A DNA stretch of 58,671 nucleotides, taken from assembly GCA_013115125.1 (NCBI GenBank), contig JABANN010000164.1, positions 1 through 58,671 of the forward strand, written 5' to 3'. Origin of the DNA: Perkinsus olseni (Eukaryota). Below are positions 10,383 to 13,300 of the stretch, piece by piece. The notes under the pieces are model-generated. The model made no database searches. It was given only the letters and a program-made list of their open reading frames with translations, and had not been told where the DNA came from. Position 1 is the stretch's first letter, and each line of letters starts with the position of its first letter. The position numbers and the translations under genes are program-made.

Positions 10383-13300
10383 TATGAACCCAGTGTCCTG
10401 GACCTCAGCCAAGCCTACAGCAGGAGGCCTCCTCCTTGATGATTACTATAGCTGCCTAGTCGCCGCTGAGGCCGCATCCTCTCAAGAACAAAGATACCCC
10501 TCCGCGCACAGGCGAGGTTCTGACGACCTTATCTTGCCTGAGAATTATGCGGGCTACCTCAAGAGCTACAGCAAGCCCGATAAGGGTGAGTGTGGAGGAG
10601 ATCCACCAAGACCCGACCGATCCTTCGAATTGGTGACATAGCTAGTATGGTGCGAAAATATGGAGGTCCCTGAGTGCGTCGATCAGAGTGGATGTGGAAT
10701 GGGAGCCTGAGACCTTGTTAGGTTAGTGATAGTGTTACTAATGCTATGGCATTCAAACTTCAGAGGGAAACTCGGCTTCTTCGATGAATTATGAGTGTAC
10801 GCTAAGAATTTGTGGAGGGGTGTAGAAGGGTCCACGGCCGACTCTGGTGTCGTGTAGGGTCGTCCAGCTCGGGGTCGTCAGAGCCGCTGTCGTCCTTCAG
10901 TCGAGGAGCCTCCTCCTCCCGCGGCGAGGGGCAGCGGTGGCAGCACAGCCAACACTAGAGGGATTGGGGCTCCGAGTCCCCTTAGAGAGAGGGCTGGCCT
11001 AGAGAGGAAGAGGAAGCGAGATCAGGCCAGGCAGTATAAAAGCAAGATGCGCTCGAAGGTCAGGCAGATGCTGAAGAAACAGGCGTGAGTCGCTCCACCT
11101 CTTGAAGCTGGGCAGCTCCTCTCGGTCAGGCACAGACGTCTGGGACTGTGGCGATCTCGAGTGCTCGACGGGGACCGTGTCCCGATCTACGTCTCCCTAG
11201 ATGGTATAGCTTACCCCCGAGGGAGGGACGCTTATGTGACTCAAGAGCGCGACCAGAAGGCCCTCACCAGGTGGGCTCTACCTTCTCGCCTATCGTCGTC
11301 AATAGTCCTGTCCAGGATGTCAGTGTCCGAGTTCGGATCTCACTCGTGCATCGTGAACCCCCGAGCCCTCCCCTACTGCCAGCAGTACCCTCCGTCGACC
11401 CCGGTTGATCTCCGCTTTTGGCATCTTCCCCCGAACATCGTCGAAGCGTAAGACTGGGGCATGGTTAATGATAAACTCTTCCACAAGCGTTCTAACCGGA
11501 GGAGTTCAGGATGAGTATTTTCCCTCGGAAACGTGTCCCCCATGAAGCTTTTGGCTGCCTCTCGGCTGCCTCGGTTGTATCTGACCTCCGCAAAAAACAG
11601 CCTCACAGGCATCGATTGCTGTGCGCCCTCTCCGCTCATGACGCATCATCCGACCCCCTCTGCAGGTATCGTCTTTCCAGCGGCATCACTGGCCTCTACA
11701 GCTGGCAGGCCGATTGTCTCAGTACGTGATTGGCTCTCGCTGCTCGTCGCCTTATGATTATTGTTCTATTCTGTCCTATCATCGTGCTTCGCTGGGAACA
11801 CTTTACTATTGCTTCTGCGCCTCCCTCAGAAACTCTACTGGACTGCACTCTCTTCGGCTTCGAAGACCAGCCCGTCAGCCCGGCCTCCAATCGGCTCCTC
11901 GACCGTCCATTCAAGTGCGGCGTTTACTGTGCTCCCACCAGTGGTGGCAAGAGCCTCGTCGCTGAACTCATCATGCTCAGAAGGCTCCTCTTTCGAGGTC
12001 TCCGTGGGGTCTACACTCTACCGTAAGGAAGCTGAGCAATCTTCCCGCCTCCAAAAGACATGGGCTGCTCCCAGGTATGTCTCCATCTGCCAAGAAAAGC
12101 TCCAGCAGCTGAGGCGAGTCTGGGGTGACTCAGGGCAGAGTGCGAGCTTGGCTGCACTGAGGTGACCCACCCAGGTTCAATTCCCCGTCCAGACATCTCC
12201 TCTTTTGTGTCAGAATAGAAGCTTTCCATTCTAACGCGTCTGTCGACAAGGAGGGCGTCATCGGAGGCTGGACCGCTGGGGTCGACGTTGCACTCGGTAG
12301 CCCTTCCAGAGTGATCGAGAGTATCTCCCTCGACCAGGTACCCTGGAGAAGGTTAATGGCATGGTCAACCGTCTTGTGTCGCAAGCTGATAGCTCTACCT
12401 CCAACGTTGGTAACATACAACAGGCCATACCAACTTTTCGTCAACTCGTGCACCAGCAGGTACAGTAATTATCGATGAACTACATATGGTCGGGGACGAG
12501 CAGCGAGGCCACATCCTCGAGTTGATTCTCCTCAAGCTCATGCTGTGAGTCTCACACATTTCCATGTTCCGCCTGCAGGGATCGAACCCGCGACCTCTCC
12601 TTTCCCTCAGCTTCGCAACAGGTCGGGTAACCAGTGCCTCCAGCGGAGAGCTCTATCAACTACAAGTCGTCTGTATGTCGGCCACCCTGCCAAGCCTCGA
12701 CCCTCTCAAAAGCTGGCTCCTGGAAGCCGGCGTTTACACTACAGAGTTCCGGCCGGGTAAGGCCTTCCTCTAGCCCCCTCACACTCAGTCAGCCCTTGGC
12801 AGTCCCTTTGGAGTACTTCGTTAAAGTGGGGCCCCGGCTGCACAGTGGGGACCTCGACCGTGTAGTGAGGGAGATACCCCTTCTGCAAGGAGATCCCGAT
12901 CGTATAACAGCATTAATATGGGAAGTGGCCCAGGTATGCCTAGACCAGGGATTGAACCCGGGACCTTCTGGTTACTCCTTCCCGGTCAGGAAGCATGCTC
13001 GGTAGGCTATGATGCTGCCTCCAATGCGACTGGCGTTATCGTTTTCTGTGCGACGAAAGCATGGTGTGAGAAGACAGCCGTTCACGTAGCCAGCACCTGG
13101 CCCGGGGTCCCGTGGGACCTCGATGACACCATGTACGATGGCCCTCCCCACCTGATGAGGTACTGCTCTCCCCTCCAGGCTCCGTGGCCGGCAGCAAGCC
13201 CTCGACATACTCCGAGCTTGCCCCGCAGGCCTTTGCCCGACACTGGAGAAGTCCATCCCAAAGGGCGTTGCGTGAGTCCTTCCAAGTGTTAGCCAAGGGG

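Follow-up and report, generated by a model that had tools for sequence, protein, structure and literature searches.

tRNA-like 3' pieces within three short spliced introns of a POLQ-like helicase gene in Perkinsus olseni

Introduction

The origin of new spliceosomal introns is still debated; the known sources are transposons and, occasionally, captured DNA. A 58.7-kb stretch of Perkinsus olseni DNA (contig JABANN010000164.1 of assembly GCA_013115125.1; the whole stretch analyzed is called the window below) raises this question in an unusual form. Three short introns of a POLQ-like helicase gene, designated a, b and c, each contain a piece resembling the 3' part of a transfer RNA (tRNA), and these pieces are called fragments a, b and c after their introns. 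How did they come to lie there, and do they serve any purpose? The answer that we favor, tentatively and with somewhat less than even confidence, is that the fragments are neutral relics of tRNA-gene-derived DNA which was inserted in the gene and is spliced out, introns a and c probably having been gained together with adjacent codons. The whole analysis covered this one gene and this one window.

The helicase gene and splicing of the three introns

The predicted product of the gene is a POLQ-like (Mus308-type) DNA-repair helicase, and the domains PF00270, PF00271, PF21099, and PF20470 were present in its homologues. The hypothetical protein FOZ61_009545 [Perkinsus olseni] (994 aa; P0323 below) was identical to the spliced translation over all aligned blocks and mapped exactly onto the exons flanking introns a, b and c (Table 1). 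All 27 introns of the gene had GT..AG borders. Their lengths ranged from 40 to 218 nt with a median of 47 nt, which introns a, b and c all exceed, and 25 of the 27 fell within 40–66 nt. The G+C content of the window was about 54%. Annotated forms of the helicase differed at the N-terminus: an extension corresponding to the region of about 10700–11046 was present in P0398 (1110 aa) and P0400 (1169 aa) and missing from P0323.

A first-pass annotation of this DNA, made from the letters alone, had allowed that the three stretches might prove exonic. All three turned out to be introns, cut out exactly in RNA-like contigs of sequencing runs X7 and X10, with exon joints from 12161 to 12214, from 12544 to 12611, and from 12933 to 12990. 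Four introns neighboring a, b and c were likewise skipped by these contigs, all of them GT..AG. The RNA status of the two runs is our guess; the GT..AG joints in their contigs show spliced molecules. Intron b was unspliced in one X7 contig and the introns at 12297–12337 and 12410–12459 in another, while neighboring introns were spliced in other contigs. The unspliced contigs represent either intron retention in some molecules or DNA in the run.

Table 1. Coordinates of the helicase gene, the three introns with their tRNA-like fragments, and the coding stretches beside them
Feature	Position	Strand	Description
POLQ-like (Mus308-type) superfamily 2 helicase gene	11047-15556	+	28 coding blocks, 27 introns; P0323 maps in 28 exact blocks
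Intron a	12162-12213	+	52 nt, GT..AG, phase 2; spliced in X7 contig, missing from annotated protein
Intron b	12545-12610	+	66 nt, GT..AG, phase 2; spliced in X10 contig, missing from annotated protein
Intron c	12934-12989	+	56 nt, GT..AG, phase 0; spliced in X7 contig, missing from annotated protein
Fragment a	12170-12195	+ (gene sense)	B-box GGTTCAATTCC and degenerate T stem with 3 of 5 pairs, followed by TCCAGAC plus A
Fragment b	12567-12599	- (antisense)	variable loop AGGTC, then perfect T arm, 3' acceptor strand of 7 nt and A as discriminator; CCA absent
Fragment c	12937-12974	- (antisense)	spans anticodon-loop position to discriminator; Rfam tRNA model positions 35-71
Seven Perkinsus-specific codons, QSASLAA	12136-12156	+	end 5 nt before intron a; missing in 21/21 non-Perkinsus homologues
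Eleven Perkinsus-specific codons	12993-13025	+	start one codon after intron c; missing in 21/21 non-Perkinsus homologues
Length-variable coding stretch, 16 residues	12612-12659	+	just after intron b; 7 residues longer than closest homologues

tRNA likeness of the three fragments

The first-pass annotation had described the 3' portion of a tRNA in each intron, and this was borne out, firmly for b and c by perfect T arms and more weakly for a, by its B-box and its likeness to c. When a T arm was defined as a TTCRANY loop closed by a 5-bp stem, with a short variable loop before it, both b and c contained one, and a did not (three of five pairs). The arm of b lies at 12575–12591 (-) with the loop TTCGATC, that of c at 12945–12961 (-) with the loop TTCAATC, and the stem pairs 5/5 in each. 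In both fragments AGGTC precedes the arm, and seven bases and then A come after it. Perfect T arms were found at only three places in the 58.7 kb, namely in b, in c and in a true tRNA-Ile(AAT) gene. Fragment b matched the antisense T arm of that gene at 20 of 22 positions and matched c at 19 of 21, in the T-arm region. The tRNA-Ile(AAT) gene itself is intact, occupies 17990–18063 (+), 2.4 kb downstream of the helicase gene, and scored 64.7 bits in Rfam.

Fragment c, cut at 12974, aligned with the Rfam tRNA model at 19.4 bits and an E-value of 0.021 (50-nt search, 4227 families); rescaled to one family and the whole window, the E-value becomes roughly 0.006 by our own rough arithmetic. For b, any tRNA score is masked by the Rfam clan rule. 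A plastid-leader model of Rfam, which is antisense-tRNA-like, gave 21.0 bits for the antisense of the real tRNA-Ile, 18.1 bits for b and 16.7 bits for c. Truncated Rfam searches with b showed, apart from any masked tRNA score, only the 3' end of transfer-messenger RNA (6.5 and 6.6 bits) and again the plastid-leader model (16.2 and 17.2 bits). The first 22 nt of b were identical to bacterial tRNA-Thr genes from metagenome contigs. Judged from sequence, b and c have the variable loop, T arm and 3' acceptor strand of a tRNA, and these features together support a tRNA-derived origin for both.

Among all positions of the window on both strands, the best non-self match to a 26-mer of c was a (20/26, in opposite orientation, confirming the match reported earlier), and b was joint second (18/26). 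This likeness gives indirect support to descent from a tRNA for a as well. The fragments take up about half or more of their introns, as had been stated: 26 of 52 nt in a, 33 of 66 nt in b, and 38 of 56 nt in c.

Other sequences of the window were also inspected. Weaker look-alikes of c at 38394, 39318, and 40633 had no T arm and were rejected. A decayed tRNA-like sequence was present at 58013–58084 (+), with 28.7 bits against the Rfam threshold of 29, a G+C content of 43% and a poor acceptor stem; an exact B-box lies inside it at 58063.

Comparison with chance

Words resembling a B-box or a T arm could in principle appear by drift in short GC-rich introns, and the results of shuffling bear on this explanation in both directions. 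The motif GGTTCRAWYCC, which we take to be the B-box consensus, occurred exactly five times in the window, compared to 0.20 times per dinucleotide shuffle, and 0/1000 shuffles reached five. Three of these exact matches are found within 830 nt, at 12174 (+), 12578 (-), and 12948 (-). Such a cluster was seen in 0/1000 shuffles; the maximum was two, in seven shuffles. The perfect T-arm pattern was less decisive, occurring 0.76 times per shuffled window, with at least three in 13/300 shuffles. It is this frequency, along with 1.1 relaxed ARAGORN matches per shuffled window (see below) and an Rfam tRNA model that covers only 11 nt of a and has no full-length match in the region, that speaks for chance. 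Against drift stand the B-box counts, the position of a and b as top-ranked matches to c in the window, and features common to b and c, namely AGGTC as variable loop and a tRNA-like 3' strand with A at its end. We consider drift distinctly improbable.

Search for complete tRNAs and for traces of insertion

Apart from the truncated searches, no tRNA match on a, b or c was obtained from Rfam either at the gathering threshold (29 bits) or at E<=10, and c reached its 19.4 bits only as a match truncated on the 5' side. Default ARAGORN found only the tRNA-Ile in the window. At a 90% threshold it gave exactly three matches: the tRNA-Ile, a (12118–12195) and b (12566–12647, -), the cloverleaves of a and b borrowing adjacent exon sequence; c was missed even at a 75% threshold. 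At the 90% threshold, 40 shuffles yielded 1.1 matches per window. When complementarity of the acceptor strand was compared with 20,000 random sites, P was about 0.008 at a, 0.14 at b and 0.41 at c. At a, the pairing exon word codes for V-W-G, residues conserved among homologues. Full-length tRNA units reaching into the exons were largely rejected in view of the matches in shuffles, these P values and the conserved coding sequence that forms the exon part of a. The earlier statement that the fragments have neither a tRNA 5' half nor CCA essentially stands, since CCA follows none of the three and the ARAGORN cloverleaves of a and b are weakly supported.

Within introns a, b and c there was no A box, body or tail as expected of a tRNA-derived short interspersed element. 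Letters that fit either side of the joint numbered two at a, none at b and four at c, no more than in the usual AG/G context. No inverted repeats were seen by eye at the three introns.

Perkinsus-specific codons beside introns a and c

The translation was aligned with 22 homologues (21 from outside Perkinsus and P0323) over a 417-residue stretch containing ten introns. Beside the Perkinsus-specific codons given in Table 1, one more clear insert was found, the seven residues VDKEGVI at about 12243–12263 (+), missing or nearly so in all 21 other homologues. Two of the three clear lineage-specific inserts adjoin two of the three tRNA-like introns, and this adjacency at a and c is the main reason why we favor an insertion that brought both the intron and the codons. 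Both of these inserts were kept in all 6/6 P. olseni alleles covering them. Two amino-acid variants occurred among alleles inside the 11-residue insert, and an E/D variant was observed in the stretch after intron b. The intron gain by insertion proposed in the first-pass annotation thus acquired new support at a and c from codons that the non-Perkinsus homologues lack.

Variation, folding and possible function

Two options for a function of the fragments, as binding sites for TFIIIC or at the level of RNA, had been raised in the first reading of the sequence. We compared the introns with run X8, which bears the same species label and is about 5% divergent. Among the substitutions listed, at least 4 fell in the 97 tRNA-like nucleotides (a 3, b 0, c 1) and at least 12 in the remaining 356 nt of the nine introns compared; these counts give the tRNA-like parts no extra constraint. 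The B-boxes of b and c were unchanged among the same substitutions, and the last base of the B-box of a was changed in one X8 haplotype (12184 C>T). One minor X8 contig had a 4-nt insertion within the pairing strand of a.

Isolated B-boxes known as extra TFIIIC (ETC) sites occur in yeasts, where they are mostly intergenic and conserved and may form clusters. The helicase introns resemble them in having the B-box consensus without a functional tRNA gene, and in being clustered. A functional cluster of this kind would be bound by TFIIIC without transcription by RNA polymerase III and would act on the chromatin or transcription of the locus; three exact consensus matches in 830 nt and the unchanged B-boxes of b and c fit such a role. 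Unlike ETC sites, though, the B-boxes here are intronic, and one of them is broken by the haplotype change, the substitution counts give no excess of conservation, and the likeness to tRNA does not stop at the B-box but reaches well into the acceptor strands, which are dispensable for the binding of TFIIIC. The option of TFIIIC sites therefore received no support, and we hold a functional cluster to be improbable to a marked degree.

Folding of the RNA was ordinary, with z-scores of +0.35, +0.28, and -0.46 for the three regions against shuffles. A role in which the antisense pieces pair with 3' tRNA fragments, or in which folds steer splicing, would agree with the antisense orientation of b and c relative to tRNA 3' parts. 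It would also agree with the pairing at a, where exon GTCTGGG pairs 7/7 with intron TCCAGAC (P about 0.008 at random sites) and the pairing is present in the centroid fold. Nevertheless, the folding energies are unremarkable, the 4-nt insertion interrupts the pairing strand of a, no native tRNA with the sequence of b or c is known, and a has the opposite orientation; we regard this role as very improbable indeed. The earlier idea of antisense targets for tRNA-derived fragments likewise finds no support in folding or in conservation. Neither conservation nor folding gave any sign of function for the fragments.

Other copies and the tRNA genes of Perkinsus

The X8 read depth over 12934–12987 was about double that of the neighboring sequence. 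Among the X8 contig alignments, one starts at 12936, with 96 letters of unrelated sequence ahead of it, and one stops at 12976, with 191 such letters beyond. These observations hint at a second locus with a 41-nt c unit, followed by a run of T and preceded by no recognizable tRNA 5' half. A metagenome collection was scanned with a single IUPAC pattern written to fit b as well as c. The scan gave 38 loci, all of them bacterial-type tRNA genes with CCA encoded or near; they matched b or c at 23–27 of 29 positions, with mixed forms.

Excerpts of a study of P. marinus (PMC3706591) describe five families of Dada DNA transposons, all inserted in tRNA genes, and five types of tRNA gene with copy counts of 349, 116, 46, 23, and 9. 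The tRNA-Ile-ATT is stated there to be among the amplified types targeted by Dada, and one-ended Dada transposition to join parts of tRNA genes to unrelated DNA (PMC3706591). Passages of another work report that most Perkinsus introns are shorter than 100 bp and discuss reverse-transcribed, re-integrated RNAs for the Perkinsus group (PMC3101222). No paper on spliceosomal introns derived from tRNA turned up in our literature searches, in agreement with the remark in the first-pass annotation that the pattern was undescribed in this lineage. Amplified tRNA genes cut by transposons are, however, already on record for the lineage (PMC3706591).

A bolder proposal would make tRNA 3' halves, from the anticodon loop to the discriminator, a small mobile and intron-generating unit in Perkinsus, with three gains in this gene in both orientations. 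Such a unit could arise when amplified tRNA genes are cut, for example by Dada transposases, or alternatively when reverse transcription stops in the anticodon loop; its insertion into coding exons would make new minimal spliceosomal introns. We consider this quite unlikely.

Origin of the introns

The sequence evidence is most readily described, in our opinion, by the following course of events. The pieces would be decaying, non-functional parts of nuclear tRNA genes, consisting of the T arm and the 3' acceptor strand, with c keeping everything from the anticodon loop onward. Their entry into the helicase gene, by insertion of DNA, would have taken place within the Perkinsus lineage, and we propose that their removal by the spliceosome makes them tolerable to the gene. 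It seems that a short intron and a few in-frame codons were both supplied by the insertion at a and at c, so that these two introns would have been gained and would consist largely of DNA derived from tRNA. The very large tRNA gene set of Perkinsus, which is also cut by tRNA-specific Dada transposons, is the likely source of donors. The sequences show the introns themselves, the tRNA likeness of b and c, the kinship of all three fragments and the lineage-specific codons at a and c; we infer the joint arrival of intron and codons, the donor, and the route, whether as a DNA fragment or as complementary DNA.

Several observations weigh against this course of events. Fragment a alone would not pass as tRNA-like, its Rfam match being the 11-nt B-box only. 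No other intron or site with the B-box/T-arm pattern was found in the remaining ~54 kb. Five conserved nucleotides separate the seven codons from intron a, the coding region around intron b varies in length in all homologues, and VDKEGVI sits in the middle of an exon, far from any intron, from which it follows that Perkinsus-specific inserts also arise on their own. The gain of a and c is read from protein alignments, in regions that are partly variable. The hint of a second copy is weak, as the two loose X8 ends may stem from different contigs, and the exact 29-mer of b or c was absent from the metagenome collection.

The same tRNA likeness would be found if copies or fragments of tRNA genes had landed inside old introns that afterwards shrank back towards about 47 nt and kept the 3' parts, the extra codons being unrelated indels. 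The tight intron lengths of this gene suggest strong length homeostasis and agree with this history, as does an insert such as VDKEGVI lying away from introns. It would, however, require three separate rounds of insertion and shrinkage in one gene, and it leaves unexplained why two of the three clear inserts adjoin exactly introns a and c. Besides, a piece of 26–38 nt in an intron of 52–56 nt leaves almost no old sequence. We think a shrinkage of old introns rather unlikely and prefer the insertion of tRNA-gene-derived DNA, with gain of introns a and c.

Other features of the window

Two genes with very long uninterrupted frames contrast with the 27 introns of the helicase. An ABCF2-like ATPase at 23336–24895 (-) has an uninterrupted frame of 519 codons, and a P5-type ATPase at 41975–46015 (+) has frames of 440 and 813 codons. 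A GC-rich stretch at 37855–38641 contains GCA/GCG/GGC triplet runs and long open frames on both strands; it produced a spurious Rfam match to a long non-coding RNA.

Comparison with known systems and significance

Spliceosomal introns can originate from captured filler DNA, one example being an intron of mitochondrial DNA origin. The present case is alike in that a foreign fragment of cellular DNA would have been inserted in a coding exon and removed by splicing. It differs in the donor, which would be nuclear tRNA genes or complementary DNA of tRNA, and in the number, three cases in one gene. Introners also have much in common with our introns: DNA that has inserted is removed by splicing in the form of a short intron, a few extra exon bases are sometimes left, and the gains are lineage-specific. 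They are, however, multi-copy families of near-identical members with transposon hallmarks, whereas here the sequence is tRNA-like, the resemblance of b to c is limited to the T-arm region (19/21), their acceptor strands being different, and within the window the pattern is confined to the helicase gene. The main text of an introner survey contained neither "tRNA" nor "Perkinsus" in a term search (PMC9860276).

Mammalian tailless tRNA retropseudogenes, as described in excerpts of PMC5322556, are likewise cut-short tRNA copies without oligo(A) and with breaks in single-stranded loops. According to the same excerpts, these copies keep the 5' part and are truncated at the 3' end; LINE-1 makes them, and target-site duplications accompany them (PMC5322556). 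The Perkinsus pieces, on the contrary, keep the 3' part, have no known link to a long interspersed element, and are flanked by repeats of at most 4 nt (CAGG at c). The Dada-split tRNA genes of P. marinus belong to the same genus, are present in hundreds of copies and are cut at defined sites, with their parts joined to other DNA; yet for the families of Ile and Tyr the excerpts place the target sites in the A box (TAGCTC) and not in the anticodon loop (PMC3706591).

If the proposed origin is true, tRNA genes would join the list of intron donors, their pieces accounting for at least half of each of these minimal and correctly spliced introns, and the extra codons beside two of these introns strengthen the case for such a donor. 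Intron gain would then be linked to the amplification of tRNA genes in Perkinsus and to the transposons that target them. Should the three cases prove to be isolated relics that lie inside old introns, they would amount to a curiosity. The three introns of this clam parasite, a perkinsid alveolate, may show how inserted tRNA DNA becomes, or hides inside, an intron.

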